A DNA stretch of 64,000 nucleotides from a virus (taxonomy: Duplodnaviria > Caudoviricetes). Shown piece after piece: positions 33,226 to 60,924 of this stretch. The DNA lies in the IMG/VR virus record IMGVR_UViG_3300037400_003675, positions 276 through 64,275 of that record; one strand, given 5' to 3'. Each line of letters opens with the position of its first letter. The stretch's first letter is position 1. The notes below the pieces were generated by a model. That model searched no databases and was not told the origin of the DNA. It saw nothing but the letters and a program-made list of their open reading frames with translations. Made by a program: the position numbers and the translations under genes.

Positions 33226-33978
33226 TTAGAAGAGTGAGAACTCGGTCATAGTGTAGGTTTGTCCGTCTTTCTTGATAGTGGTCGTGCGAGTGCCCTCGGC
33301 ATCCGTCTTGACTATCTTCGCGGATAGAATGTTGCCCTTGTCATCTTTCTTCTCGGTGGTCTTGGTAACGGCAATCTCTCCGCTATCGGTAATCTTCGCA
33401 CCTCTCTTCATCAGCGCATCAAGTAGGGGGTTTGCCTTGACTTTCTTCTCGGTCTCTTCCCTCTTCTTCTGCTCTGCGGTCTTTTCGGCTTTCTTGGGCA
33501 CATAGGGTTTCAGCGAGGGGCACTCTTTCTCAATGGTCTCCTTGCTCTCGGTGTAGTAGTGCACCGCCCAACCGAACACCTCTGCATCCTCAATCATCGC
33601 GCAGTTGCCACTTGCCTTCTTCCTTGCCTGCGCGGTAATGTATGACCAACACGAATGAATGTCCTTGTCCTTGGACTGCATAGCGGTTGCGAGTGCTTGG
33701 TCGCCCTCGTTTGCCCTGCGCTGCATTTCATTGAGGACAATCTGCTCATAGGGAGAAAGTTTCTTCTCCTTGGTCTCCTGCTCGGCAGATCCAGCGGACT
33801 TTTCTTCATCCGTTGCCTGCTCGGTCTCTCCGCAGTCCTCTTCGGTGGTATCTTCATCATCCACCACCTCTTCGGTCTGCTCGTTGATTGGCTCTTCTGC
33901 CACCACCGCCTGCGTGGGCGTGGCGTTCTGCTCGGTCTCCTCTTGGATGCCGAACAAATCATTGATTTCTTCTGCCAT
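33226..33978 (-). CDS. PcfK-like protein
   Basis: Start MAEEIND; K.I..CWSYI..QARK......A.IEDAEVFGWAVHYY motif; adjacent to pcfJ. Confidence 0.8.
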   Translation of the reverse strand: MAEEINDLFGIQEETEQNATPTQAVVAEEPINEQTEEVVDDEDTTEEDCGETEQATDEEKSAGSAEQETKEKKLSPYEQIVLNEMQRRANEGDQALATAMQSKDKDIHSCWSYITAQARKKASGNCAMIEDAEVFGWAVHYYTESKETIEKECPSLKPYVPKKAEKTAEQKKREETEKKVKANPLLDALMKRGAKITDSGEIAVTKTTEKKDDKGNILSAKIVKTDAEGTRTTTIKKDGQTYTMTEFSLF

Positions 33979-34046
33979 AATGACTTGGTTTTGATTGTTG
34001 ATAATTGGGGGTATGGGGAAAGTATCAGTCTCCCCATACCAAGGTG

Positions 34047-34277
34047 TCAGTAGTTGATTGGCGCAGCCTGCTCGTTGGTAACGAGACAATGAGTGAGCGC
34101 ATTGTTGGTCTTGGCTACGATGCTGCCACAAGAGGTCAGCCATATCTGCCTTGTCCTCTCGGTCTTGTGCAGGTCGGAGTGGATGCCTTGGGCATCCCTG
34201 CGGATGAACTCGGTGCAGAGTATCTGAATGGTTGTCAGTTCGGTCTGCGTGAGCGTTACTTGCGTTTCGTGTATCAT
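34047..34277 (-). CDS. Hypothetical protein
   Basis: 76 aa from MIHETQV. Confidence 0.5.
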   Translation of the reverse strand: MIHETQVTLTQTELTTIQILCTEFIRRDAQGIHSDLHKTERTRQIWLTSCGSIVAKTNNALTHCLVTNEQAAPINY

Positions 34278-45432: not shown

Positions 45433-48400
45433 ATGGCAGACGACAGATATTTGCAGAACCGGCAGCTCGCGTATGACCTTCTCAAGAGGGAGGGCTATAC
45501 CGACATAGGCGACAGCGCCGAGGATTTGTTCAGGGACAGGGAGAACAGCAGGATAGCATACGACCTTCTCTCCAAGGCGGGGTATTCCGACTTGGGCAAG
45601 GACTACGACGAGTTCGCCTCCAAGCTGTACGCCCCCGAGGTCCCTGCAGGGGAAGCCCCCGATCCGCTCGCCACGAGTTCCTTCTCCCAGGCACCGCGCA
45701 GCACGCGCAGGTGGATGCGCGGAGAAGAGAGGAAGGCGCAGGAGCAGGAGCAGGAGCAGGAGCCCGAGCCGCAGGAACCCTCTGCACCCGAGACCAGCTC
45801 GTTCGCGCAGGCTCCCGAGAGCACGAAGGACTACCTCGAAGCCGCGGAACGCAACCCCTATGTGGGGCGGGATGCCGCCACTCTCGCCGCCATGGCCGGA
45901 GAGGTGGACAGGCAGGATGCGGAGTTCGCCAAGGAATACGAGGCACGCAACGCATCGCTGACTACCGATATCGACGAGATGTCACCCACCCTCAACGCGG
46001 AGGATGTCGCCTGGCTCAAGGAAAATGAAGGGCGATATAAAGCCTATAAGGATAAAAAGGCGCTCATAGCGAACGCCCTCACGCAGACCTCGGAGTTCCA
46101 GGGCGCACTCGCAGGGGCGAAGGATGCGGGCAATGCCGCACGCGAACGCCTCAGCGCTCCCGCCACCGCAGGCGGACGCACCGTCTATAACGACAGGGAA
46201 CTGAAGAACTGGGAGACCGTGCGCCGCCTCTCCGACATCACCGAGAGGGAATCCAAGCTGGGTGATAAGGCGGAGCTGAAGGGCGTGCCCGAGGACATAG
46301 CCGTGGCGGTCAGGCAGTTCGCAGGCGCAGCCGGAAGGATGGTGGACGAGAACTCCCTCACCTTCGGCCTGGTCAACGCCCTCGCCAAGAGCAATGTCCG
46401 CGAAGTGGGCGACAAGGCCGGCGCGATCATCACCGACGTGCTGGATTCCTTCGGAGTGAAGGACGGAGCCGTCCCGGAGGACAGGCAGGAGGAAGTGTCC
46501 GCCGCGATAGCGGAGGCCCTGCAGAACGGACTCACCGACGGAGAGAAGGAAGTCCTCAAGGCATTTGACAGATACTCCTACATAAACGGCGTGAAAGCCG
46601 CATCCGCGTCCACCTACGCCAAGGCCGGACAGGCAGCGGAGCAGAGCGCCGAGTTCATGCTGGGATTCATACTCACGGGAGGATTGGAGAAGATGGGTGC
46701 CCGCGCAGCCAGGAACATCGCCACCAAGGCCACGAGGCAGTGGCTGAGCAGGGGCGCTGCGGCAAGGGGCGCTGCGAACATAGCGGCAGACTTGCCCGGT
46801 GCCATGGCGAAACTCACGGCAAGGGGCATCAAGCCCAACCTCGCTGCGAAGATGCTCGCGGATGCGGGTGTGGCTGCGGAGCGCACCGCGCTGCTCTTCC
46901 CCCGCACCGCGGAGGCATACGCAGACAACCTCATCCAGACGACAGGGGAATACAAGGACGAACACGGGCGGCTGAAGTTCGACAGGAGCCGTGCCAACGC
47001 GGCCCTCAACACCGCGCTCACGCAGTACATAGAATACTGGTCCGAGGGATTCGGCGAGTATTTCGGAGCCGGGGAGAAAGCCCTGTTCAAGTCCGTGACG
47101 AAGAACGCACCCGCAAGTGCCATAGGCAAGACGCTCTCGGACTACCGGGGCAGCATAGGCAGGTTCCTCGACCAAGGCAAGTTCAACGGTATGTTCAACG
47201 AAATGCTGGAAGAGGTCGTGGGTTCGGTGTTCAACTCCACCGCAGGCTGGCTCTCCAAAGACCGCCTCGGCGACAAGGAGGCGATGAAGGAGTTCTTCGC
47301 AGGGGACAACCTCGCGACGCTCTTCCTCTCGTTCCTGCCCATGTCGGCGCTCAGCGCAAGGACGAACATAAAGGCGTATAACGCAATGGTCAACCGCTAC
47401 GACAAGGCGGTGGACACCCTCAAGCCGATGGTGGAGAGCGGAGCCGTGTCCCAGGAGGACCTCGATTCCCTCGTGGGCGACATCCGCAACAGCACTCCCG
47501 AACATATCAAGGACCGCGTCGTGGAGATAGCGGACAAGGCGAGGAAGGCAGCCGGAGGAAAGCTGCCGGACAACTTCGCGCAGTCGCTGCTGGGTTATGT
47601 CGAGGGCAACCTCTCGATGAACATGGAATCCGACCTCTGGGACCAGTCCTCGGAGAAGAGAAGGGTGGTGGATGCCTATTCCGGCACCTACTCCTTCCCC
47701 GACCTCGGCAGCGCGTGGGATATCGTCTCCGCGGAGGATGCCGCCAGGCAGGCCGCACTTGAGGCGGGGCTGGACGAGGATGACCTTGAGAAAGATCCGT
47801 TCCGTCTCGCGCAGGAAGCTGCCGTGATCGAACGGCAGGGCAACGCCGAGGCAGCGGAAGTCCTTACGGAATACGCGCAGGTCAAGGCTGCGGCCCAGGG
47901 CTTGCGTGACGGATACCGCAAGGAGACGGAGGACATGACAGACGGATTCTCCCGGACGGTGCGGGATGCTTCCCTCAAGAACGGCGCGGTCATCGTCGCC
48001 GAGTACGAGGGCGCTCCGGTCATAGTGCTCACGGACGATGCGTCGGTGGATGCTGACGGCTCCGTGTCGGCAGGCGGTGCGGACGGCCTCGTGCGCATTG
48101 CTCCGACATCTCCCTCGGCAGACGAACTCATAGTGAAGTCCGGCACCCTGCGGAACGGCTCTGCGGTGAACGCGGAGAACTTCATCGCGCAGTCCGCCGC
48201 ATCGTTCGCGGACCAGCGGCAGGTAGCCTTCGAGCAGGCGGTGGGTACCATCAGCCCCTCGGGGAAAGCGGCAGTCATCAACGGACTTACAGGGCAGACC
48301 ATACTCATACAGGACGAGACCGGCAGTGTCTCCCCCGTGACCATAGTGAACACCGACGGACGTGGCGGGGTGACCGTCAGGGACGAGGGCAAGGGCGGCA

Positions 48401-51400
48401 GTATGAATGTCGTGTCCGCGGAGACTCTCTACGACATGGCGCAGAAAGACCAGGACGGAAACGTCCAGATCTACTCCGCCCAGGGAGCGGAGCAGCCCGC
48501 ACAGGAGGCCCAGCCTCAGCCTGCGGAAGCACCCGCACCTGCGGAGCAGCAGCCCACGGCCGACCTCGGGGATTATGTCGGGACGGAATTGTCACTACTT
48601 GTCAATAATTCGCCGGTACAGGCGTATGTGACGGAGGTGGGTGACGGGCGCGTGTACTTCGAGTACGAGGATGTGGACGGCAACGGCAGGGCCAGCTCGA
48701 TGACGGAGCAGGCTTTCCTCGCGGCCCTTCAGGGGGCGCAGGGCGGACAGCAGGAGGAGCAGGAGGCCCAGCCGCAGGCTCCGGCGGAAGAGGCGCAGCA
48801 GGGCGTCCTCCCCAGGACGAAGGACGGAGAGGTGGACATGGCCAATATGTTCAACGTGGACAAGGAGACCTTCGCGCAGAGGATTCCCGAACTCGTGGAT
48901 TATATGAACTCCGTGCTGGGAGAATACGCGCTGAAGGAAGTGCAGAAAGCATACACCGCAACAGGGGAGGCGGTGAAGAAGATACAGGAGAGGATAGACA
49001 AGAACTCCGACCTTGCGAAAGCCCCCAGGCTCTACAAGGAACTCGCGGAGGAAAAGCAGAAGAAGGAGAATTACGGTGCGCTCATCATTGCGATGCGCCC
49101 GGAGAGGGGGCAGGCCCAGCCGGCAGCGACAGCAGCGGCGGAGCCCCAGGCTCCCGAGGCACCTGTGGACGGGAATGTGCCCGACATCTCCGACGACACT
49201 CCGGAGGCAGCGCAGGAGCGCGGATACTTCATACAGAACGGAAACCGCGTGGACCGCGCAGCGGAGGATGCCGTGGCGGCCACCGGTGCGGACACGAAGA
49301 TATCCTTCACCAAGACCGAGGTGGTGGATGCCAAGTACGGATTGGTGGATGCCAAGCGCATCATCCCTTCCCATGTGGCGGATCAGGAGAACCCCCTGCA
49401 TTTCTTCGCGAAGAACTGGCAGCCGAAGAACCGCAACCGCACGGACAGCGCCGTGGCCATACAGCAGATGGCGAACGGCATCCGTCCGGAAGAGATAACC
49501 GTGGGTGCCACCGCATACGGCGGTGCGCCTATCGTGAACAGCCGCGGAGAGGTCATCCAGGGCAACGGACGCAGCGAGGCGCTGCGCAGGGCATACGCCC
49601 AGGACACCGCAGCCGGATACAAGCAGTGGCTCGCGGAGCACGCGGAGGACTTCGGTCTCACCAAGGAGCAGGTCGAGGGAATGGACAGCCCTATCCTCGT
49701 CCGCGTCCTCTCGGTGGATGACGCACGCGCGGAGGAGCTCGGGAAGAGGGAGCAGAAAGACCTTGAGTCGGGCGGCGACCAGACCTTCTCCGGCAAGGGC
49801 CTCGCGAAGAAGATAGGCGACAGGCTGGAAGAGTTCCTGAATATCCTCTACGGGGGTGATCTCGGCGAGGATGCCACGCTCTCGGACTACATCAACGCGA
49901 ACGGCCAGCTCGCACTCAACTGGCTGAACCGCAACGGATACATAAACGACACCGAGCTGCAAAATGCTCTGGAGACCACAAGGAGCGGAGAAGTCCGCTT
50001 TACAGATGCGTCAGTGGCCGCTTTCCGTGAGCTGAGCCTTGAACCTTTGTTCCAAAGTGGGACAGAAAAAGTGAGGGCGGGCTATGAAAAGTTGCCGAAT
50101 ATTGTTAAATTGGCGCTGCAAAGGAATGTCGCGCTGCTGTCGAACCTTGAGGGAGTGATACCTGACATCCAGGCAGCACTGTCCTACTACCACGACTTCG
50201 AGACCGCGGACCCGGCATTCCAGAAAGCCAAGACCACCGAAGAGGCGTGGAAAGCAATCGAGGACTGGATGAACAATGTCCCTCTCGGCAGCGACAAGAC
50301 CGAGGGCGACCTGCATCCGAACATCGTGGCAAGGCGTTTCGCAGCCATCTTCAAGGGCGCGAAGAAAGCCAAGGCCCTGACCGACCTCTTCCGCAACATA
50401 GCCGCCGCAATGAACGGAGAGGGCGGGCTGTTCGGGGAGAACCCCGAGGCCGTTGACCGCATCGGCGCATACACGCAGACCAATGTAATTTCCGAACAAG
50501 AAGCAAACACTATACAAAATGGACAAGAAGGTAACACTGAACGAGGCTCTGACGCAGTCCCTGGAGACAATGGCGAGCAAGGGGGACAAGTGGGCGAAGG
50601 AAGTCCTGCAAGCGGAGTCGAATCACCTGCAGAAAACGCAGGAGATAGCGGACAGGCAGCTGAAGGAGCTGAAAGCGCAGAAGAAGGCGCGGTAGCCGCC
50701 GGAACGGAGGAATCCGAACCTGCGGCAACCGAAGAGGTCTCCGAGACTACGGAACCTGCAGAGCCCGCAGAGCCTGCGGCTCCCGCCACCGAGGGCGGTT
50801 ACGGAGAATCCAACACCGTCGTAACGAAAGACCAGTACGAGGAACTGAAGCGCAGGATGCGCGAGAAACTCGGACAGCTCAACGCGGGATTCGACCCGGA
50901 GGTATTCTCCATCGGCGTGCAGATGGCCGCCTATCACATAGAGGCTGGCGCAAGGAAGTTCATCGACTTCGCCAAGAGGATGATAAACGACCTCGGCGAC
51001 GCGATCCGTCCCTACCTCAAGGCCATCTACAACGGAGCGCGTGACCTTCCCGGAATGGAAGAGTTCAGGGAAGAGATGGACAGCGCCGAGACCGTCAGCG
51101 GAATCGAAGTAGCAGATATCAACATAAACGACAACGATAATGGAAAAGAAGACACTACTGATTTACAGCAGGGAGGGCAGCGACCTGGAGCTGTACCTGG
51201 TGATACCTCAGAAGGAGCTGGAGGAGAGACCGGAACTCCTGGCACCGACGGGGATAACGCCGGAGATAATTCAGGAAATGCAGCGCCGGGCGGGAATCAA
51301 GGAAGTGACGCCGAAGAAGGAGCTGGAGGCGAACAGGGCACTCTTTGGGACGACGGAGAACCGAGTGGAACTTCAGGAAATCGTGAAGGACACGGAGGAA

Positions 51401-54400
51401 GAACCGATGTCGGAAAAGGTTCTGGACGAAAGACTCCGACAGGTAGAGGAGGAAGGTCTGGAGATACTGGAACCGGAGTGGTATCCGAGGAACCCGTCGG
51501 TGTGGGACGAGACACCGGTGGACGCACAGATGCAATAGACCCCGAAGCCGCTGCTACCGAGGCCGAGCAGAAAGCCTACGAGCAGGAAAAGAAAGCCATC
51601 CAGAACGAGACGGATGCTGAAAAGCTGAAGGCCCGCAAGGACGAGCTGAAAGCCGGCATATCCGCCATCACCGACAAGCACGATCTCTCCAAAGCCAGGA
51701 TGAGCGGCCAGCTCAGGGCTGTCCTTGAGAAGTTGCGCGACCTGTTCTCCAAGAGCGCCGACAAATCCGAGAGGCTCACCCAGGAGAAAGTACCATACGA
51801 ATCCGTATCCGACCCTACGGGAGAACACGCAATTGGCAGTGTGGTCCCTTCGGGCTCGGCGGACGCCATGCGCAACGCAATCCTCCGTATGGAGACGGAA
51901 GAGAAGGGGGGCGCGGCTGACTTCGTAAGGGGGCTGGAGGGATATAAGTCCCTCGACGAGATGTTCACCGGTGACGGGAAGGACATCGGTCTCTCCTCCG
52001 AGCAGGTGGATTCCGTCGCTCTCGCGCTCCATCAGATGCTGGGCGGGCGTATGTTCATCGTCGGAGATATGACCGGCGTGGGTAAGGGCCGCCAGGGTGC
52101 GGCCATCATCCGCTGGGCTTTGAGGGAGAAGAAGAAGATTCTCTTCGTCACGGAGAAGCCCGACCTGTTCAGCGATATGTATCAGGATCTCGTGGATATC
52201 GGCAGTACCGACCACGTTCCTTTCGTGGTTAACAATGTCCCCATCGTTGATAAGGGCAAGAGCGAGGAAGAGGGGAACGTCATACTGAAAGCCCCGGGTA
52301 AATCCGTCGCGAGCGCTCTCTATGGCTCCGAATCCGATGCCTTGCCGAAGGTCAAGTGGAGCGGGGCATTCAAGGGCAAGCAGTACAATGTCGTGATGAT
52401 GACCTACAGCCAGGCCCAGTCCACATTGCCCAGCGCGAAAAAGAAACTCGACTGGGTGAAGCAGTACGCGAAGGATGCCATAGTCATCTGCGACGAATCC
52501 CACAACGCCAGCGGCGAATCCAGGCGCGGAGGTTATTTCCGCGACATAGTGCAGAACGCACAGGGCGTGACATTTATGTCCGCGACCTTCGCCAAGCGCC
52601 CGGACAATATGGTACTCTATACCCTCCGCTCATCCTTGCGAGATGCACAGATGACGCAGGAGGACATGATTGAGAGTATCCAGAAGTACGGCGTCCCCAT
52701 GCAGGAAATCCTCGCCGAAGGTCTGTTCAGGACCGGAGAGATGGTGCGTCGCGAGAGGGACTTCTCGGACGTGAAGATACACTGGGATGAACCCAAGGAT
52801 GTATTCACCGAAGAGGAAATCAAGCAGTCCAGGGATACCTACGACAAGACGACGGACATCGTCAACTCAATCATCTCGATGCAGAGGCAGATGATGGACC
52901 CCGTCATCAAGAAGATGAACAAGGAGCAGTTCGAGGAGGCTAACAAGGCAGCGCGGAAGAGGCTTGAAACCTCAAACGAGGGAACGAAAGTAACCATCCG
53001 CGAGTACACTTACACCCCCTATGCCAGCCAGGTATCGAACGTGGCGAGCCTTATGTTCTATGCGATAAAGGCCCGCAAGGCTGCGGAAATGGCCATCAAC
53101 CAGATCAAGGAGGGCAAGAAGCCCATCATCGCGGTGGACAACACTCTTGAAAGCTATATCAAGGACATCGAGGGAGAAGTACCTTCCGCAGACTTTGCCT
53201 TCATCCTCAACCGCGGTCTGGAGAAGAGCCTGAAGTACCGGCTCAAGAGCACCGTCAAGTGGATTAACCCGGAGACGCATACGGAAGAGACCGTCAAGGA
53301 GGACAGTTCCGTTGCCGAACTCGGCTCGTTCGAGAAGATAATGGGCAACGGGTATTCCAATATCATACGCCAGAGCATCCAGAACTACAGCCAGGACAAG
53401 GAGGTCCTGCCCCTGATGCTCTCCCCTATCGACTACATCAAGTCGGAGATAGAGAAGGCCGGCTATAGGTGCGGCGAGATAACCGGACGCAGCTGGTCGC
53501 TCAGGCAGAAAGTGGACGGCAATTGGGAGCGGGTGCCGATGAAGATAGACAAGACTTCGGAAATCACCCATTTCAACGGCGGCAGCGCAGCAGCCCCTCT
53601 CGACGAGAGCGAGGTTAATAACGCCGTCATCCTCAACACGGCGGGTGCTACGGGTATATCCCTTCACGCCAGCCGGCGTTTCGGCGACCAGCGCAAGAGG
53701 ACGATGATTATCCTCCAGCCGGCAAAGGACGTCAATGTAGAAGTTCAGATACGAGGCCGCGGAGACCGTACCGGACAGGTGGCACGATGCGAATACTTCT
53801 ACATTATGAGCCCTATCCCTGCGGAGAAGAAGATAATAATGATGCTCAAGCAGAAACTCGCATCCCTGGATGCCAATGCCGTAGGTACGGAGAAGGTGTC
53901 GTCCAACAAGGTGGATGCGAACGATATGGACAACAAGTACGGCGATGAGGTAGCCCGCCAGTTCCTTATCGACCACCCCGAAGTCAACCAGAATCTCGAT
54001 AAACCCCTCGAGAAGAAGAACGGTGAGTACGAGCATCGCGACGGCCTGCTCTATGCGTTGCTCAAGGGGGCGCAGCGAATGACTTGCAAGAGGCAGGAGC
54101 TGATCCTCACGGAGCTGGAGAGCGCGTATGTCGAGCAGATAGACTACCTCAACCAGAACGGCATCAACGACCTCGCCACCACCACGATGAACCTCAACGC
54201 GACCACCGTGGACCAGGCCATATTCATCAAGGGCAAGGACAACGAGTCAATGTCGGTGTTCGCCCACGATACCAATATGGAAAGGGTTGAGGTGGATGTG
54301 CTCAAGAAGCCCCTCCGCTCCCCCGAAATCTACGCAAGGATGAGGAAACTCGGTGCTCTCACGGAAGATGGGAAGATTGACCCTCTCTATGGCACCAACA

Positions 54401-57400
54401 TATATGAGGCATCTTCCAAATACCGGGATGAAGTGTTGCGTGACAAGGAGAAGAAGAACTTCGAGGCTCAGGAGCAGTTGGTGGAGGCCCTTAAAGTTGC
54501 CACGCCCAAGACCGATGACCAGACCGAAGAAGATTACGACAGGGCCATCAGGAACGATCCCAGCTACAGGGAGCTCGTTAGTACGAATATGGACGAGTAC
54601 AACCGTCTTGATATGGACTTGTCAACGCAGGTGGGCCGTGTCGAGAGGGCTGGAGAGTACCTCAAGCCCGGTATGCCGGTACTCGTTCCCCTTACCGATG
54701 ACCTCAACGGGCAGAAGCGCTATGGCCGTTTCATCGCTTTCAAGACCGCGAAGGATGGCAAGCCGAAGAGTGTCAGGGCGGTATTCGCCGTGACCGACGC
54801 CCGCGCCGTCATCGAGATTCCCGTGGTCTCCAAATATGACATCATCACTTGGATAGTGAACAATGTCTATGGAACCATCGGACTCGGCTCCGACTTGAGG
54901 GAGATAGGCGGCCCGACATACGACAAGAGCATCACCGACGAAACCCGCCGTACGGCAAGGGATGAGTGGTGGGACAAGAAGGTCCCCAAGCAGACGACGA
55001 GGCAGATCCGTTATATGATTACCGGGAACATCCTCCAGGCTTGCGGAAAGCTCGGAGAGTACAAGGGCACCATCACCACCTTCACCCGTAAAGACACGGA
55101 TACCGGGGAGGTGACCGTGGACAGGGGTATGTTGCTCGCCGAGGACTTCGACCCGGAGAACTTCAAGATACGCAGCACAGTCACCAAGGATGATGTGTGG
55201 AACGGATACAACGGCATCTATGACGACAAGACGAACATAGAGGTCCGCCGTGACGGAGACGTGATGGTAGTGCAATATATGCGCCCCTTTAGGAGCCGGG
55301 AGAATCTCGCCAAGAACCCTCTCATGCTCGACGAGGACCTGAAGCCCCTGTTGGTGGACAATACCTTCATCGCCTGGACAAAGGATGCGATAAGGGCTAC
55401 CGTGACGGAAGAGAATGTCGAGGCCGTACTCGACCACCTCTACCGCAACTACGGATTCACCAAGGAGACACTCTTCATCATGCCTGACAGCACGGAAAGG
55501 GTGGACGCCATAGTCTATACCGACAAGCCATACGAGGAGGTTCTGAAAGAGTTCCACGACAAGTATGGAAATAACCTTGACCAATGGGATATAGAGCGCC
55601 AGCTCAAGCAGATGCTTGACCAGTACAAGATGGACGTGAACAACGAGGACCTCAAGAAGCAGATCCGCGATTTTGTCCAGGCCCGTCAGGCATACCTGCG
55701 CAAGAAAGCCGCGAAGAATGACTCCATAAGGATGGCCTGGGATGTCCTCATAAAAGATGAGGAAATCGCCCAGGCGACAAGCAAGGAGCGCAGGGACTCC
55801 CTGTATGCAAAGCGCGAGGCCGAGAAGGAGGAACTCGCGGTGCGAGGGGTTCACGGAAACCTCTTGCACTTTGAGGCAGGCGAAGTCCCGTTCGATGTCG
55901 TCGAAGAGAACTTCAACAAGCTGAACAAGGACAAGGGCAATGCCGAGATAGCGAAGAAGGTGTTCCCTCTTGTCAAGAAACTCGGTCTTACCACCATCTT
56001 CAACGAGAAAACCCCTAACAATGTCGGGGGACATACTGCGGGACAGGAGCTGACTTACAACTGGAAGTACATGAACTCCGATTGGATTACCGACCAGATG
56101 AAAGCGGACACGTTCCTCCACGAAGTAATCCATACTGTGACCGCCTATGCGAAAGGCTGCGTGGAATATGGGTACGAGCACCTCATATCCGAGGAGATGC
56201 TCGACATAGTCAACCAGCTGGACGGCATCTGGAGGCTCATAAAGTACAATCAGCTCTTCCAGCACAGTACCGGAGATGGCAATGCCTATACCGACTATGG
56301 TACTACGGATTGGTATGAGATGATGGCCGAGGCCGGCAGTAACGAAGAGTTCCGCGCCGATCTGCGGAAGATGACTCTCGGCATCAAGGTGCTTTCGGGC
56401 GTGATGTCCTTTACGAACGTCACCGACAGGGATGATTACACCGGCAAGACACAGAATGCGGAGGAAGCCGTGCTGGAGAGGTTGGATGCACTCATCGAGG
56501 GGTTCAACCAGCACGCCTTCACGGAGTATTTCCGCGGTACCGGTTTCGGTGCGAGGTCATACAGCGAGCTCAACGAGGCCGACAACAAGGCACAGGAGTT
56601 CAAGGACAGGAAGGAGGCGCTCCATAGGGCGAAGAAGATAGGGAAGAAAGCGGAGATGGTCCTCAGCCTGCATACCTTCATCGACGACATGACCGACACG
56701 GAGCTGCTCCGCACCAATTACCTCCTGCCAGGAAACAAGGACCTTGAGGCCGAGATAAGGAAACGGAACCTCGACCCCCATCCTGAAATGCGTATGCGTG
56801 ACGGAGAAGCGGGAGCGACTGAGGAAGCAGCCAGCCCCGCTCCGGAAGAAAATACCGCCGCCAGCCGTATCACTGACGGGGAACGTAGGGGCGTGGCCAG
56901 AAGGCTGGACAGTATGTCCGAGATCCTGGGAGTTCCCATCAGGCAGATAAGCCGCGACGAGATGCCCGCAGGCCATAAGAGGGGCAAGGGTTATTACGAC
57001 ACCGCAACCGGCGAAGTGGCAATCTGCATGGATAACGTGTCCGACCTCCGCGACGCAATGGCAACGGTGTTCCACGAGACCGTAGGACACCTGGGGCTGC
57101 GCAGGCTCTTCGGGGACAAGTTCAACGAGGCAATGGTTGGCATCTATTCCGCGCTTGACAGCAAGGGCAGGGCGTGGGTATCATCCTATATGCTCAATCA
57201 CGGACTGCAGCCAGGAGACGCAGGCATCGTCCGGGGAATGGAGGAATACCTCGCATCCCTCGCCGAGAGCGGAGACTTCAGGAGCAGTGTCTGGGATGAC
57301 ATAAAGAGAGCCATCGGCAGGATAGTGGATGCCATCTTCGGCACGGACGGATTCCTCTTCACCGACAGGGAACTGAACTATATCCTCCGCGCATCCTATG

Positions 57401-60400
57401 AGCATCTGAAGAATCCCGACTACCTCTCCACCATGGAGGGTTGGGCCTGGGATACGCACCTCAAGCGCGAACTTGGAATCAACGAGACCGACCCGAACAG
57501 GCCCACCGATCCCGATGGGCCGGGGACCGGGAGGCTCTTCCGCGACGGAGATTCGGGAGTGGCGAAGGTGGACTACGAATCGGAGATGCGCGACTGGCGC
57601 AACACTCTCGTGATGGAGCACCAGAACGCAGACCTCCCCGTCAAGATAGGGATGGAGAAGATAATGCAGGAGGTAGGCAAGGACAAGATTGAAGAGAACG
57701 AGGACTACCTGACACGGCACAACCTCGCCAGCAGCCGGGCGGAGAGCCAGGCTCACGAGTTCGAGCTGTTCCGTTTCACTCCCCTCTTGGAGCAGCTGCG
57801 CAAGGTGCAGGCCAAGGTGCCCGTGGAGACACGCGGAGCAGCCGGCAGGGAGGAATCATATGAGAAGATCCTCGACTATCTCTACGCGGTATCCGGCATT
57901 GAACGAAACGGCTACAAGAACAACGAGATAGAGCAGCGTAAGCAGGAGGCGCTCGATGCTCTGGGAGAGGCTGCAGCGAAAGAACGCCTTGAACTGATGA
58001 AGAACGGGACGGAAGCACAGCTTGCGAAGTTCGAGCAGGCCCTTGCGGAGAAGAAGGCCGAGATAGAATCCCGCTACGAGGGAATGAAGAGGGACTGGTC
58101 CGGTCTCACTTCGCTGGTAGGCCGTCCGTCCGACGAGTGGCGCGAGGCAGAGGATGACGCAAAGGCGCTCATTGCCCGGTTCCGCAGCGAGGTGGGTGAC
58201 GATGCCGCCCTTGAGGAGCTGTGGGAGCGCATACGCGCCTGCACCGATTACAGCCTTGAACACGCATACAGGCACGGACTCCTGACGAGGGAGGAATACG
58301 AGCGCCTGCACGGCACGGAATCGGAGCCGAGGATGTGGGAGTACTACCTCCCCTTGAGGGGCTTCGATGAAGAGACCGCCGAGGACGTGTACGGCTATGA
58401 CAGCATGGTGCATCCCAATATCGGGTCCGTCGTGGTGAAGAAGATGAACGGCCGCTGGACGAAAGCGGACAACCCCATAGCGAACATACTCAACATAGCG
58501 GAGTCGGAGATAGTCCAGGGCAACGACAACTGGGCCCGTCAGGCTCTCTACCGTTTCGTGCTGAACGCCGGGGAGAACTCCCTGCTCACGCAGACCGATG
58601 CCTGGTACGAGAAGGACCCCGCTACCGGCCAATGGGCGCTCGCGCAGCCCCGCCCGGATGAAACCCTTGAGAGGTTCGAGGCGAGGATGAGGGCGATGCG
58701 TGAGAACATACAGCCCGACGGCACCAACGGCACTTCCCTCGCGAAGAAGGGGCGCAGGGGACTGAGACTCGACAGGATCATGGCCAACAAGGCACACGCA
58801 AACGAACACCTCATACGGCTGAAGGTCGGAGGAATGGACAAGATGATATGGGTGAACGGAGACCCCGCCATAGCCAAGGCCGTGGCAGGGCTGGGGCGTG
58901 CAAAGACGATGCGCCTCATACGCAGGGCATCACGCGCCCTCTCCAACCTCTTCACCACCTATTCCCTTGACTTCACCGCGAGAAACCTCATAAGGGATAC
59001 CATCTATTCGCAGCTTGCGCTCATAACGAAGGAGGACAGGCCGTACCGCCATCAGTACAGGAAGAACTGGATAGCCAACTTCGGCTACGGCACCTTCGCC
59101 TATCCTATGGTGAAGCTGATGGCAGAGTGGGAGAGCGGCAAACTCCAGACCAAGCCCAACCCCACCCCCAAGGAGCAGATGTTCATGGACTTCATGCGCG
59201 ACGGAGGGCAGACCGGTTACACCATCATCAACTCCGTCTCCGAGATAAAGAAGAGCATAGAGCGCTCGATGCGCCGTGCCGGAGAAGATGTGGGCAAGGT
59301 GCGCATACCTATCCTCGGGCACTATGCGAAGTTCGTCAAGACACTGAACGAGGGATTCGAGCTGCTGACGAGGTTCACGGCATACGAGACTTCCCGCAAT
59401 ATGGGCCGCAGCGGACAGCGCTCGGCAGCGGATGCGAAGGAGATTTCGGTGAACTTCAACCGCAAGGGGCTGCAGTCCGGCAAGGACTTCCTCGGAGGTA
59501 CCGCGGCCTACCTGGGTGCCACGCACTACTTCTACAATGCGGGCGTGCAGGGCTTTGACAACTTCCTGCATCTGTTCAAGGTCAATCCCGTGAAAGTGTC
59601 GGCCGCTGCCGGAGGTCTCGTCCTTCTCGGCGTCCTCACCCCGATGCTCAATGCGGCTCTCGCAGGGCTCGCGGCAGGCATGGGCGACGATGACGGAGAC
59701 GAGAGGAAGAAGCACGACTGGTATTGGAACCTTCCCGAATGGGTAAGGCGCAACAGCATCGTGCTCGGTACCGGCACGGGTTATCTTGCCATACCTCTGG
59801 CGGTGGAACTCCGTGCGTTCTATGGCCTGGGAGACATAGCGGCATCACTGCTGTACCACAAGCATCCCGCACGCAACGGATTCACCATAGGGCTTGATGC
59901 GATCAACACCGCAGCCGGGATACTCCCCGTCAACCCGATAGAGGGATATACCGCCAACGGCAACATAAGCGACGCAGTCCTCCGTACGGTCACTCCCGAT
60001 GCGACGATGTTCATAGTGGACATCGCCACCAACAGGGACTACACCGGCAGGCCGCTGAAGAAGGTCAATCCGTTCAGTGGTACGGTGCCTCAGTCGCAGT
60101 CCGCATATGCCAGCACACCGAAAGCGCTCGTGGAGGCTTGTCAGCACCTCGCCCAGACGACGGGCATCGACATAGCTCCCGGCGTGCTGAGGGACGTGTT
60201 CCGTAACCTCGGGGGCGGATTCTACAGGGTCGCGGAAGATGTGGCGAAGCTGGTTGCAGCGGACGAGGAGCGCCCGAGAAGGTGGGATGACATTCCTTTC
60301 CTCAGCGGATTCACGGGGCATATCGACAAGGACCGCAGCAGCTCCTTCGAGACCTCCGCGCTGTACGACTATCAGAGGCTGTCCGAAGATGTGGTCAAGC

Positions 60401-60924
60401 GGTTGAACATAGCCGCCGGCACGAAGGACATCACCTCGTCGATGGCCTATGACCACCCGGAGAATCTCCCCAAGGAGGCGAGGGTGCAGAAGATCCTCGA
60501 AGGTGAGGACTATGTGCTCGGCAAGATGTTCCGCGACGGAATGAACAACGAGTACAAGATGAAGGTGCGCCAGCGGGATGCCAAGGACGGCTCCTACTCC
60601 AAGGGCGACCTCTACAAGTCCCGCGAGATAGAGCGCAAGGGCGTCGATCAGCTGAAGAAGGACTGGAAGGAACTCCTTGAGCAGCTCGTGGCGATGCCCG
60701 GCAAGACGCAGGAAGAGAAGGATGCGAAGGCCGCGTTCTCCCTGGAGGTGCAGGATGCCTGGCACAAGTACCACAGCGCCGAATCCGACCTCGTGGACGC
60801 GCTCATGGAAGAGGAATACAACCACGTCCAGGAGAAACGCAGGAACGGAATCCCCTACGAGCCGAAGCAGCCTGCCACGGAAAAGGTGTACGAAAGGGCA
60901 AGGGAAATAGTAAAAAACAAATAA
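45433..60924 (+). CDS. 5163-aa polyvalent (DarB-like) virion protein: ParB/ddrB-like domain, strawberry-notch-type SF2 helicase, two zincin motifs, LPD38-like C-terminus
   Basis: GAPIV...VIQGNGR (ParB-like), GDMTGVGKGRQ, DESH, SATFAKRP, HEVIH, HETVGH and SVNFNRKG...LPEW motifs. Confidence 0.85.
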   Translation: MADDRYLQNRQLAYDLLKREGYTDIGDSAEDLFRDRENSRIAYDLLSKAGYSDLGKDYDEFASKLYAPEVPAGEAPDPLATSSFSQAPRSTRRWMRGEERKAQEQEQEQEPEPQEPSAPETSSFAQAPESTKDYLEAAERNPYVGRDAATLAAMAGEVDRQDAEFAKEYEARNASLTTDIDEMSPTLNAEDVAWLKENEGRYKAYKDKKALIANALTQTSEFQGALAGAKDAGNAARERLSAPATAGGRTVYNDRELKNWETVRRLSDITERESKLGDKAELKGVPEDIAVAVRQFAGAAGRMVDENSLTFGLVNALAKSNVREVGDKAGAIITDVLDSFGVKDGAVPEDRQEEVSAAIAEALQNGLTDGEKEVLKAFDRYSYINGVKAASASTYAKAGQAAEQSAEFMLGFILTGGLEKMGARAARNIATKATRQWLSRGAAARGAANIAADLPGAMAKLTARGIKPNLAAKMLADAGVAAERTALLFPRTAEAYADNLIQTTGEYKDEHGRLKFDRSRANAALNTALTQYIEYWSEGFGEYFGAGEKALFKSVTKNAPASAIGKTLSDYRGSIGRFLDQGKFNGMFNEMLEEVVGSVFNSTAGWLSKDRLGDKEAMKEFFAGDNLATLFLSFLPMSALSARTNIKAYNAMVNRYDKAVDTLKPMVESGAVSQEDLDSLVGDIRNSTPEHIKDRVVEIADKARKAAGGKLPDNFAQSLLGYVEGNLSMNMESDLWDQSSEKRRVVDAYSGTYSFPDLGSAWDIVSAEDAARQAALEAGLDEDDLEKDPFRLAQEAAVIERQGNAEAAEVLTEYAQVKAAAQGLRDGYRKETEDMTDGFSRTVRDASLKNGAVIVAEYEGAPVIVLTDDASVDADGSVSAGGADGLVRIAPTSPSADELIVKSGTLRNGSAVNAENFIAQSAASFADQRQVAFEQAVGTISPSGKAAVINGLTGQTILIQDETGSVSPVTIVNTDGRGGVTVRDEGKGGSMNVVSAETLYDMAQKDQDGNVQIYSAQGAEQPAQEAQPQPAEAPAPAEQQPTADLGDYVGTELSLLVNNSPVQAYVTEVGDGRVYFEYEDVDGNGRASSMTEQAFLAALQGAQGGQQEEQEAQPQAPAEEAQQGVLPRTKDGEVDMANMFNVDKETFAQRIPELVDYMNSVLGEYALKEVQKAYTATGEAVKKIQERIDKNSDLAKAPRLYKELAEEKQKKENYGALIIAMRPERGQAQPAATAAAEPQAPEAPVDGNVPDISDDTPEAAQERGYFIQNGNRVDRAAEDAVAATGADTKISFTKTEVVDAKYGLVDAKRIIPSHVADQENPLHFFAKNWQPKNRNRTDSAVAIQQMANGIRPEEITVGATAYGGAPIVNSRGEVIQGNGRSEALRRAYAQDTAAGYKQWLAEHAEDFGLTKEQVEGMDSPILVRVLSVDDARAEELGKREQKDLESGGDQTFSGKGLAKKIGDRLEEFLNILYGGDLGEDATLSDYINANGQLALNWLNRNGYINDTELQNALETTRSGEVRFTDASVAAFRELSLEPLFQSGTEKVRAGYEKLPNIVKLALQRNVALLSNLEGVIPDIQAALSYYHDFETADPAFQKAKTTEEAWKAIEDWMNNVPLGSDKTEGDLHPNIVARRFAAIFKGAKKAKALTDLFRNIAAAMNGEGGLFGENPEAVDRIGAYTQTNVISEQEANTIQNGQEGNTERGSDAVPGDNGEQGGQVGEGSPASGVESPAENAGDSGQAAEGAESAEEGAVAAGTEESEPAATEEVSETTEPAEPAEPAAPATEGGYGESNTVVTKDQYEELKRRMREKLGQLNAGFDPEVFSIGVQMAAYHIEAGARKFIDFAKRMINDLGDAIRPYLKAIYNGARDLPGMEEFREEMDSAETVSGIEVADININDNDNGKEDTTDLQQGGQRPGAVPGDTSEGAGGETGTPGTDGDNAGDNSGNAAPGGNQGSDAEEGAGGEQGTLWDDGEPSGTSGNREGHGGRTDVGKGSGRKTPTGRGGRSGDTGTGVVSEEPVGVGRDTGGRTDAIDPEAAATEAEQKAYEQEKKAIQNETDAEKLKARKDELKAGISAITDKHDLSKARMSGQLRAVLEKLRDLFSKSADKSERLTQEKVPYESVSDPTGEHAIGSVVPSGSADAMRNAILRMETEEKGGAADFVRGLEGYKSLDEMFTGDGKDIGLSSEQVDSVALALHQMLGGRMFIVGDMTGVGKGRQGAAIIRWALREKKKILFVTEKPDLFSDMYQDLVDIGSTDHVPFVVNNVPIVDKGKSEEEGNVILKAPGKSVASALYGSESDALPKVKWSGAFKGKQYNVVMMTYSQAQSTLPSAKKKLDWVKQYAKDAIVICDESHNASGESRRGGYFRDIVQNAQGVTFMSATFAKRPDNMVLYTLRSSLRDAQMTQEDMIESIQKYGVPMQEILAEGLFRTGEMVRRERDFSDVKIHWDEPKDVFTEEEIKQSRDTYDKTTDIVNSIISMQRQMMDPVIKKMNKEQFEEANKAARKRLETSNEGTKVTIREYTYTPYASQVSNVASLMFYAIKARKAAEMAINQIKEGKKPIIAVDNTLESYIKDIEGEVPSADFAFILNRGLEKSLKYRLKSTVKWINPETHTEETVKEDSSVAELGSFEKIMGNGYSNIIRQSIQNYSQDKEVLPLMLSPIDYIKSEIEKAGYRCGEITGRSWSLRQKVDGNWERVPMKIDKTSEITHFNGGSAAAPLDESEVNNAVILNTAGATGISLHASRRFGDQRKRTMIILQPAKDVNVEVQIRGRGDRTGQVARCEYFYIMSPIPAEKKIIMMLKQKLASLDANAVGTEKVSSNKVDANDMDNKYGDEVARQFLIDHPEVNQNLDKPLEKKNGEYEHRDGLLYALLKGAQRMTCKRQELILTELESAYVEQIDYLNQNGINDLATTTMNLNATTVDQAIFIKGKDNESMSVFAHDTNMERVEVDVLKKPLRSPEIYARMRKLGALTEDGKIDPLYGTNIYEASSKYRDEVLRDKEKKNFEAQEQLVEALKVATPKTDDQTEEDYDRAIRNDPSYRELVSTNMDEYNRLDMDLSTQVGRVERAGEYLKPGMPVLVPLTDDLNGQKRYGRFIAFKTAKDGKPKSVRAVFAVTDARAVIEIPVVSKYDIITWIVNNVYGTIGLGSDLREIGGPTYDKSITDETRRTARDEWWDKKVPKQTTRQIRYMITGNILQACGKLGEYKGTITTFTRKDTDTGEVTVDRGMLLAEDFDPENFKIRSTVTKDDVWNGYNGIYDDKTNIEVRRDGDVMVVQYMRPFRSRENLAKNPLMLDEDLKPLLVDNTFIAWTKDAIRATVTEENVEAVLDHLYRNYGFTKETLFIMPDSTERVDAIVYTDKPYEEVLKEFHDKYGNNLDQWDIERQLKQMLDQYKMDVNNEDLKKQIRDFVQARQAYLRKKAAKNDSIRMAWDVLIKDEEIAQATSKERRDSLYAKREAEKEELAVRGVHGNLLHFEAGEVPFDVVEENFNKLNKDKGNAEIAKKVFPLVKKLGLTTIFNEKTPNNVGGHTAGQELTYNWKYMNSDWITDQMKADTFLHEVIHTVTAYAKGCVEYGYEHLISEEMLDIVNQLDGIWRLIKYNQLFQHSTGDGNAYTDYGTTDWYEMMAEAGSNEEFRADLRKMTLGIKVLSGVMSFTNVTDRDDYTGKTQNAEEAVLERLDALIEGFNQHAFTEYFRGTGFGARSYSELNEADNKAQEFKDRKEALHRAKKIGKKAEMVLSLHTFIDDMTDTELLRTNYLLPGNKDLEAEIRKRNLDPHPEMRMRDGEAGATEEAASPAPEENTAASRITDGERRGVARRLDSMSEILGVPIRQISRDEMPAGHKRGKGYYDTATGEVAICMDNVSDLRDAMATVFHETVGHLGLRRLFGDKFNEAMVGIYSALDSKGRAWVSSYMLNHGLQPGDAGIVRGMEEYLASLAESGDFRSSVWDDIKRAIGRIVDAIFGTDGFLFTDRELNYILRASYEHLKNPDYLSTMEGWAWDTHLKRELGINETDPNRPTDPDGPGTGRLFRDGDSGVAKVDYESEMRDWRNTLVMEHQNADLPVKIGMEKIMQEVGKDKIEENEDYLTRHNLASSRAESQAHEFELFRFTPLLEQLRKVQAKVPVETRGAAGREESYEKILDYLYAVSGIERNGYKNNEIEQRKQEALDALGEAAAKERLELMKNGTEAQLAKFEQALAEKKAEIESRYEGMKRDWSGLTSLVGRPSDEWREAEDDAKALIARFRSEVGDDAALEELWERIRACTDYSLEHAYRHGLLTREEYERLHGTESEPRMWEYYLPLRGFDEETAEDVYGYDSMVHPNIGSVVVKKMNGRWTKADNPIANILNIAESEIVQGNDNWARQALYRFVLNAGENSLLTQTDAWYEKDPATGQWALAQPRPDETLERFEARMRAMRENIQPDGTNGTSLAKKGRRGLRLDRIMANKAHANEHLIRLKVGGMDKMIWVNGDPAIAKAVAGLGRAKTMRLIRRASRALSNLFTTYSLDFTARNLIRDTIYSQLALITKEDRPYRHQYRKNWIANFGYGTFAYPMVKLMAEWESGKLQTKPNPTPKEQMFMDFMRDGGQTGYTIINSVSEIKKSIERSMRRAGEDVGKVRIPILGHYAKFVKTLNEGFELLTRFTAYETSRNMGRSGQRSAADAKEISVNFNRKGLQSGKDFLGGTAAYLGATHYFYNAGVQGFDNFLHLFKVNPVKVSAAAGGLVLLGVLTPMLNAALAGLAAGMGDDDGDERKKHDWYWNLPEWVRRNSIVLGTGTGYLAIPLAVELRAFYGLGDIAASLLYHKHPARNGFTIGLDAINTAAGILPVNPIEGYTANGNISDAVLRTVTPDATMFIVDIATNRDYTGRPLKKVNPFSGTVPQSQSAYASTPKALVEACQHLAQTTGIDIAPGVLRDVFRNLGGGFYRVAEDVAKLVAADEERPRRWDDIPFLSGFTGHIDKDRSSSFETSALYDYQRLSEDVVKRLNIAAGTKDITSSMAYDHPENLPKEARVQKILEGEDYVLGKMFRDGMNNEYKMKVRQRDAKDGSYSKGDLYKSREIERKGVDQLKKDWKELLEQLVAMPGKTQEEKDAKAAFSLEVQDAWHKYHSAESDLVDALMEEEYNHVQEKRRNGIPYEPKQPATEKVYERAREIVKNK
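50519..50695 (+). CDS. Nested +1-frame 58-aa ORF (MDKKVTLNEAL...) inside the giant gene
   Basis: A-rich start context; phage-typical codon usage follows this frame rather than the host ORF frame. Confidence 0.6.
   Translation: MDKKVTLNEALTQSLETMASKGDKWAKEVLQAESNHLQKTQEIADRQLKELKAQKKAR
51140..51538 (+). CDS. Nested +1-frame 132-aa acidic ORF (MEKKTLLIYS...) inside the giant gene
   Basis: A-rich start context; CTG/GAG/AAG codon bias in this frame while the host frame is a G/D/E low-complexity linker. Confidence 0.7.
   Translation: MEKKTLLIYSREGSDLELYLVIPQKELEERPELLAPTGITPEIIQEMQRRAGIKEVTPKKELEANRALFGTTENRVELQEIVKDTEEEPMSEKVLDERLRQVEEEGLEILEPEWYPRNPSVWDETPVDAQMQ

Follow-up and report, generated by a model that had tools for sequence, protein, structure and literature searches.

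A putative small gene nested in the +1 frame of a giant DarB-like protein gene of a probable Bacteroidota phage

In lambda and many other phages the small gene Rz1 lies complete within Rz; it is read from the same strand in the +1 frame, has a start signal of its own, and its product and that of Rz are made from one late mRNA. The pair is annotated in Serratia phage Parlo and Burkholderia phage JC1. In phiX174 overprinting (B in A, E in D, and K) one stretch is likewise read in two frames, one having genome-typical codons and the other being low-complexity and disordered, and a general rule for overlapping pairs is that one of the two is disordered and of unusual composition (PMC6195259, PMC8227390). 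The DNA analysed here is a 64,000-nucleotide stretch, termed the window, of the IMG/VR virus record IMGVR_UViG_3300037400_003675 (positions 276 to 64,275), and it represents a complete phage genome with terminal repeats (64.3 kb). Its giant gene for a polyvalent DarB-like virion protein contains a 58-codon open reading frame (ORF), termed ORF1, which is read in the +1 frame of the same strand and shares the architecture of Rz1 in Rz and the two-frame composition of the phiX174 pairs. The initial annotation proposed ORF1 as a second overprinted gene in the giant gene, and this is supported by four independent kinds of evidence, namely codon usage, start signals, conservation specific to the +1 frame and the ratio of nonsynonymous to synonymous change (dN/dS). 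On these sequence comparisons ORF1 is very probably a real, translated gene of a Bacteroidota phage with independent initiation of translation.

ORF1 is complete from start to stop within the giant gene, with its ATG at 50519 straddling the host codons AAT-GGA (Asn-1696 and Gly-1697) and its TAG at 50693-50695 straddling a host GTA valine codon, which is rare (11% of valine codons). A 58-amino acid +1-frame ORF beginning at an Asn-Gly of the host frame had been described at this place and is present exactly, with the translation first given. At ORF1, chance is exceeded in codon choice, start context, conservation and the pattern of selection.

Codon frequencies derived from the giant gene were used to score its three forward frames in windows of 40 codons. 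The host frame usually leads by 44 ± 16 log units, and the +1 frame outscores it at just two places in 5,163 codons, one at ORF1 (50470-50706) and one at a sibling ORF termed ORF2 (51097-51558). The ORF1 codon log-likelihood of -3.72 per codon equals the mean of genuine-coding windows (-3.72 ± 0.12), compared with -4.89 ± 0.22 for the +1 frame elsewhere and -4.16 for the host frame over ORF1, and the ORF1 frame scores best of six, with a G+C content at third codon positions (GC3) of 0.83 in its own frame. The host frame over ORF1 has a GC3 of 0.32 compared with 0.75 gene-wide and 0.73 expected (19 of 60 codons compared with 43.9 expected; z = -7.5 conditional on the amino acids), and its synonymous-choice log-likelihood is depressed to the same extent (z = -7.4). 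Codons that are rare in the host gene (CAA, CGA, TCT, AGT, GGA and GCA) occur in this spacer, in agreement with the earlier description of a host frame that turns G/E/S-rich with unusual codons. The aberrant host codon choice recurs at the homologous spacer in the relatives L002 (z = -8.5) and L028 (z = -6.1), where the frame scan finds exactly two +1 regions each, at the homologous ORFs. Four other linkers of the giant protein used as controls show normal GC3, with z values from -0.5 to +1.5, and nothing to suggest a hidden gene.

The frame scan of twelve control genes of the window phage gave no +1 signal but for a single flag, in gene 34143..33226 (- strand), which was ruled out as a hidden gene and is explained by an over-extended ORF start. 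The first ~55 codons of this 305-amino acid ORF look non-coding in the scan (minimum -19.5), and its true start is probably an internal methionine near 33978.

Like those of Bacteroidota, the genes of the window phage have no Shine-Dalgarno motif and are preceded by A-rich sequence; 56-71% of them carry A at positions -14 to -12. A start-context weight matrix (PWM) was built from 38 true starts of the phage and applied to the 258 internal ATGs of the giant gene, among which the ATG of ORF2 at 51140 ranks first (score 4.6) and that of ORF1 ranks second (score 4.2), the median of the true starts being 4.3 and the next-best internal ATG scoring 1.8. The region preceding the ORF1 ATG has an AT content of 0.68, which places it in the top 0.5%. 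The predicted minimum free energy of folding from -30 to +20 is -0.2 kcal/mol at the ORF1 ATG and -0.3 kcal/mol at the ORF2 ATG, and both lie within the least-structured 0.4% of 1,025 giant-gene windows (mean -11.8), with true starts averaging -2.5. By the PWM and the folding energy, ORF1 carries initiation signals of its own of the type used by the window phage.

As an observation on the phage in general, the leaders of all gene starts in the window lack a Shine-Dalgarno motif and are A-rich and unstructured, carrying A at positions -14 to -12 and T at position -1. Leaders of this type point to a Bacteroidota host, despite a GC content of about 60%.

Scans of viral, metagenome and genome contigs yielded DNA relatives of the window's own clade in L001/L027, L002 and L028 alone, L001 being a 97% relative and the host flanks of L002 and L028 being 47% and 45% identical. 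Eight relatives of the giant protein (P0004-P0011) were recovered as proteins, of which P0011 alone is tied to DNA (L028) and P0004 (97% identity) probably represents the giant protein encoded by the L001 contig. L001, L002 and L028 keep a +1 ORF of 58-59 codons with the same Asn-Gly start and an end at the host GTA codon, and their products have in common the turn motif G-D-x-x-A-K-E/D-x-L. P0003 and P0012 are further members of the family known as called proteins; the cluster member P0114 (1,059 amino acids) was discarded as unrelated to ORF1.

The cultured Bacteroides phages BKO1-TP3 and BS-TP4 belong to a more distant sister clade. Their host protein is collinear with that of the window (residues 1249-1750 with 1227-1722, 32% identity, E value 1e-60), and an unannotated 54-codon +1 ORF with the motif G-S-K-E-A-x-E-L-L (L037:9980-10141) begins at precisely the corresponding Asn-Gly. 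In some of their IMG/VR relatives the turn reads A-N-K-G-D-K-E-A, which forms a bridge from G-S-K-E-A-x-E-L-L to the S-K-G-D-K-W-A of the window. The alignment of profiles from the two clades with hhalign gives an E value of 1.2e-4 and a probability of 55%, and no match is found between ORF1 and the BKO1 homologue using BLASTP.

The order of residues was assessed for each frame separately by comparing Smith-Waterman scores with those of composition-preserving shuffles. The +1 and host frames give z values of 19.0 and 6.3, respectively, for the window with L002, 8.7 and 1.5 for the window with L028, and 7.4 and 0.6 for L002 with L028. When the window, L002 and L028 are each compared with BKO1, the +1 frame gives z values of 2.3-3.2 (p = 0.008-0.036) and the host frame gives 0.5-1.7, which is not significant. 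The order of residues is kept in the +1 frame but hardly at all in the host frame.

An IMG/VR scan seeded with the BKO1 flank gave 80 loci, of which 78 are readable. The ORF1-family ORF is intact in all 78, with lengths of 52-194 amino acids, and the host frame is open in 77. Sites were classed by their effect in each frame in the 28 unique 46-codon cores of these BKO1-like loci. Changes silent in the +1 frame and non-silent in the host frame have a proportion of 0.518 (pNS), compared with 0.144 for those silent in the host frame and non-silent in the +1 frame (pSN) and 0.144 for those altering both frames. The ratio of changes altering both frames to those silent in the +1 frame (dNN/dNS) is 0.18 (95% confidence interval 0.09-0.33), and the corresponding host-frame ratio (dNN/dSN) is 1.00 (95% confidence interval 0.60-1.77). 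Transition bias cannot yield this asymmetry because both silent classes are the transition-rich third positions of their respective frames. Variable columns are distributed 26/20/33 over the +1 codon positions, which is the normal coding pattern for the +1 frame and the reverse for the host frame. Within the window's own clade, where pairwise dN/dS is noisy or saturated (saturated for ORF2), the comparison with L001 gives a +1-frame dNN/dNS of 0.27 (P = 0.015), and in the comparison with L002 the divergence at host wobble positions falls to 0.25 in ORF1 only, with values of 0.45-0.65 elsewhere. Together, the shuffle tests and dN/dS show an embedded frame that is conserved and under purifying selection.

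The outer frame is also maintained. It is open in every lineage, although synonymous recoding would preserve an open host frame in only 11% of cases for ORF1 and 1.9% for ORF2, which argues that host read-through is selected as well. The locus is a case of dual coding with unequal constraint, in which the sequence of the small protein is selected and the spacer of the giant protein needs only openness. The G/E/S/A-rich composition of the spacer arises because the G-ending codons of the +1 frame are read one base early, and in homologous loci the spacer keeps its composition and not its residue order (dNN/dSN about 1). The host linker at ORF1 is mainly a -1 read-through of the small gene. Codon usage favours the ORF1 frame as the older of the two, a pattern that stronger selection on ORF1 would also give.

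In the proposed mechanism, ribosomes starting at 45433 would read frame 0 through the ORF1 stretch and produce a G/E/S-rich spacer, constrained to stay open and hydrophilic, and other ribosomes would load independently at the A-rich, unstructured region without a Shine-Dalgarno motif at 50494-50518. Initiation at the ATG would then give a 58-amino acid helix-turn-helix hairpin, with termination at the TAG. ORF1 is presumably read from the giant gene's own late mRNA, since a search of the giant gene for an internal Bacteroidota promoter motif (TAnnTTTG, -7) found none. The features of the locus are listed in Table 1.

Table 1. Coordinates of ORF1, its host gene and associated features in the window
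Feature	Coordinates	Strand	Description
Putative embedded gene ORF1	50519..50695	+	58 codons and TAG; +1 frame of 45433..60924; product P0002, predicted helix-turn-helix hairpin
Putative ORF1 translation-initiation region	50494..50518	+	A-rich, without Shine-Dalgarno motif, AAA at -14 to -12, unstructured
Upstream +1-frame stop TAA	50486..50488	+	Closes the frame upstream of ORF1; stop-to-stop stretch 50489-50692
Host-frame spacer, residues 1696-1788	50518..50796	+	Codons 1-60 correspond to ORF1 read in -1; G/E/S/A-rich
Host giant gene	45433..60924	+	5,163-amino acid polyvalent DarB-like virion protein (ORF list, translation, Pfam)
Conserved host domain between ORF1 and ORF2	50797..51111	+	Highly conserved; 88-99% identical in L004 and L005; present in 71 phage records
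Putative sibling embedded gene ORF2	51140..51538	+	132 amino acids, +1 frame; same signatures as ORF1

Several other explanations of the locus can be considered. A programmed +1 frameshift near 50490-50519, ending at 50695, would produce a truncated, ParB-containing N-terminal isoform carrying a 58-amino acid tail. Frameshifting commonly yields truncated isoforms from phage structural genes, and a frameshift would agree with selection on the +1 frame and its reading from the same mRNA. However, the upstream +1 stop lies 10 codons before the ATG in the window, 1 codon before it in L002 and 2 codons before it in L028, which leaves almost no room for the shift, and what is conserved is an ATG whose start context is canonical and unstructured, with no conserved slippery motif seen. 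A frameshift is therefore very unlikely.

ORF1 could also be an untranslated chance ORF, in which a hydrophilic linker devoid of Leu, Ile, Val and Met codons leaves the +1 frame free of stops and with the look of a K/E/L/Q-rich helix. The length of ORF1 offers no argument to the contrary. Resampling of synonymous host codons over ORF1 gives a +1 frame free of stops in 80% of trials and one with an ATG-started ORF in 17%, four other hydrophilic linkers of the giant protein are likewise without +1 stops, and in the giant gene 18 +1 stretches run for 58 codons or more without a stop and 7 ORFs beginning with ATG reach 58 amino acids or more. The mere existence and length of ORF1 are not above chance, the open +1 frame being explained by composition alone, and ORF length was discarded as evidence. 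The initial annotation had suggested comparing the frequency of such ORFs with shuffles of linker composition; by that measure the openness of ORF1 is indeed not above chance, yet the measure would wrongly reject what is very probably a gene, and it does not discriminate because frame openness is a by-product of composition. A chance ORF leaves unexplained the collapse of host GC3, which is absent from the control linkers, the first- and second-ranking start contexts with their unstructured mRNA, the conservation of residue order in the +1 frame only with a dNN/dNS of 0.18 in the homologues, and the long variants described below with a conserved domain containing W, Y and C. This explanation is largely refuted and is highly unlikely.

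It is extremely improbable that the odd codons serve to slow ribosomes between domains for co-translational folding, with the +1 ORF being incidental. The host codons are indeed rare here and the spacer does lie between folded domains, but the other inter-domain linkers of the giant protein have normal codons, and pausing predicts no conservation of +1 residue order, no fixed ATG and stop, no start signals and no excess of changes synonymous in the +1 frame. Equally improbable is a fossil gene, once free-standing, swallowed by gene fusion and now silent with decaying signals, since purifying selection is ongoing among close homologues (68-100% identical flanks) and between the window and L001 and the start and stop are retained in every lineage read, although the ORF1 codon usage does look ancestral compared with the host-frame spacer and no function is matched.

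Some points weigh against reading ORF1 as a translated nested gene. Its translation is deduced from DNA, and no family, fold or function is matched in Pfam, PHROGs, the ESM Atlas or the Protein Data Bank (PDB; searched using Foldseek). Part of the good +1 codon score arises because host codons starting with G force +1 codons to end with G. The window's own clade comprises three independent DNA lineages, and the strong dN/dS result stems from the sister BKO1-like clade, whose homology to ORF1 is based on position, the shared motif, the shuffle tests and the modest profile match; the window-L002 pair taken alone has no dN/dS asymmetry (alternative-frame ratio 1.3, not significant).

The product of ORF1 is predicted by AlphaFold (AF2) to be a helical hairpin with helices at residues 7-20 and 24-57 and a mean predicted local distance difference test score (pLDDT) of 88.9, in line with the helical peptide first proposed. 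The conserved turn motif of the hairpin is G-D/S-K-x-A-x-E-x-L. In contigs of Bacteroides phages from the human gut the family includes long variants of 194 amino acids (L103:1379-1960, +) and 129 amino acids (L099:1379-1765, +). The 129-amino acid variant has an added C-terminal domain that is entirely helical and in which W, Y and C are invariant (pLDDT 85.2 for the long variants), and in the 194-amino acid variant the N-terminal hairpin module is also duplicated, with the giant-gene frame open throughout.

A profile search of 1.84 billion proteins returned family members together with proteins having four or five similar L-A-x-x-G-D-K-E-A hairpins. Two of the proteins observed (P0013 and P0014) are secreted-looking, of about 310-330 amino acids, with four L-A-x-x-G-D-K-E-A-x-x-x-I hairpins resembling ORF1, and these repeats are a possible source or analogue of the ORF1 hairpin module. 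Sub-threshold HEAT_PBS matches are confined to the repeat proteins found by the ORF1 profile. No HEAT or TPR repeat model of Pfam reaches its gathering score for ORF1, and the BKO1-type homologues reach TPR_17 with E values of 0.07-0.12. Foldseek against BFVD with the long variant returned nothing usable, and neither ORF1 nor its homologues match TnpV (PF14198). Regarding function, it is possible but doubtful that the product is a co-expressed partner of the giant virion protein, acting as an adaptor, chaperone or regulator through its hairpin; a similarly tentative suggestion is that it is an unrelated small protein, host-directed or anti-defence, riding in the late transcript.

The giant protein itself matches Pfam families PF18763 (3.6e-32), PF13872 (1.6e-20), PF13871 (2.8e-18) and PF18857 (2.6e-22), and its domains comprise ddrB-ParB, the N- and C-terminal halves of a Sno-type helicase, and LPD38. 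ORF1, whose family consists of hairpins of 52-59 amino acids with variants of up to 194, follows the ddrB-ParB module. This multidomain arrangement, in a gene that adjoins the portal gene, identifies it as a member of the polyvalent DarB-like/PLxRFG group, and the 71 phage records that carry homologues have them annotated as DarB-like or PLxRFG. The homologue in Burkholderia phage JC1 is virion-associated by proteomics (PMC9144972).

ORF2 has a host-frame GC3 z value of -10.9 and is open in L002. The initial annotation had suggested that disordered linkers of polyvalent proteins are by-products of hidden small genes, and this holds for the ORF1 and ORF2 linkers here but not for the four other low-complexity linkers with normal codons. 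A third hydrophilic spacer at 56773-56904 (+ strand, residues 3781-3824) was observed to have a host GC3 of 0.55 compared with 0.75 expected (z = -3.2) and a stop-free +1 frame. It is not flagged by the frame scan and is possibly a weaker or decayed case of a nested gene.

A survey by codon usage covered 11 other giant genes, with L002 and L028 taken as host-frame stretches and five more IMG/VR relatives, BKO1-TP3, BS-TP4, Parlo and JC1 taken as full giant genes. One to five +1 regions are flagged per gene and +2 regions are never flagged at the same threshold. Most of the flagged regions contain an ATG ORF after a stop with protein-like sequence; a few, of low complexity in either frame, may not represent genes. 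A properly spaced Shine-Dalgarno motif is present for three of the four ORFs flagged in Parlo and JC1. By this measure the by-product idea appears to extend to about two dozen spacers in the 11 genes.

Among the individual ORFs observed, those in JC1 (L039:12386-12721, +) and Parlo (L038:12464-12850, +) are unannotated, lie in the +1 frame with Shine-Dalgarno motifs and directly follow the conserved domain of the DarB-like genes of these cultured proteobacterial phages. The JC1 ORF (112 amino acids) is found by tblastn in 23 phage records, including 13 Ralstonia phages at 33-38% identity over near full length, compared with 10 Burkholderia records only, at lower scores, for the host-frame peptide of the same nucleotides. 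All Bcep22-like phages retain it, and its match to TnpV is weak (E value 0.029). Another nested +1 family, of about 54-67 amino acids, was observed at the same relative place in the giant genes of G001, G002 and G003 (L029-L033; 4,824-7,946 codons), with the motif L-G-K-K-V/L-S/E-D/E-L-T-E-A/Q-E-K.

Annotation pipelines do not allow one gene to be wholly nested in another, and ORF1 and its relatives are accordingly absent from the annotations that were inspected, those of four cultured phages among them; no published description of nested genes in DarB-like giant genes was found in the literature searched. A wider proposal, which has a fair amount in its favour but falls short of an even chance, is that DarB-like/polyvalent giant genes in phages of several bacterial phyla have long been built, as a general principle, with +1 genes nested in them. 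Many of the disordered linkers would then be -1 read-through of once independent genes, swallowed as their neighbours fused, and dozens of hidden small-protein families would act together with the giant protein that is injected.

Should the small proteins be produced, the giant anti-restriction polyvalent proteins would have hidden partners, with roles in packaging, regulation or anti-defence being possible. Some intrinsically disordered linkers would then be the shadow of another gene and not selected as linkers, which affects how such regions are read in any protein, and culturable Bacteroides, Burkholderia and Serratia phages would offer a natural, testable case of the interplay of gene fusion and overprinting. 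The codon-usage frame scan is simple and can be applied to all giant genes of phages and plasmids.

Compared with known systems, the ORF1 hairpin is like those of HEAT and TPR repeats in having two antiparallel helices with a tight G-D/S turn, but it is a single hairpin and, as described above, is matched by no Pfam repeat model at threshold and by no PDB structure. The resemblance to Rz1 is architectural only. The ORF1 product has no signal peptide, lipobox, hydrophobic N terminus or any cysteine and therefore lacks the features of an o-spanin, and the host gene is not a lysis gene, as Rz is, but a 15.5-kb gene for a polyvalent virion protein in which the overlap falls on an unconstrained spacer. 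Unlike in small viruses, genome compaction is no obvious driver in a 64-kb phage. Finally, in contrast to the overprinted genes of the phiX174 type, the compositionally odd member of the pair is here a segment of a giant multidomain protein and not a separate new protein.

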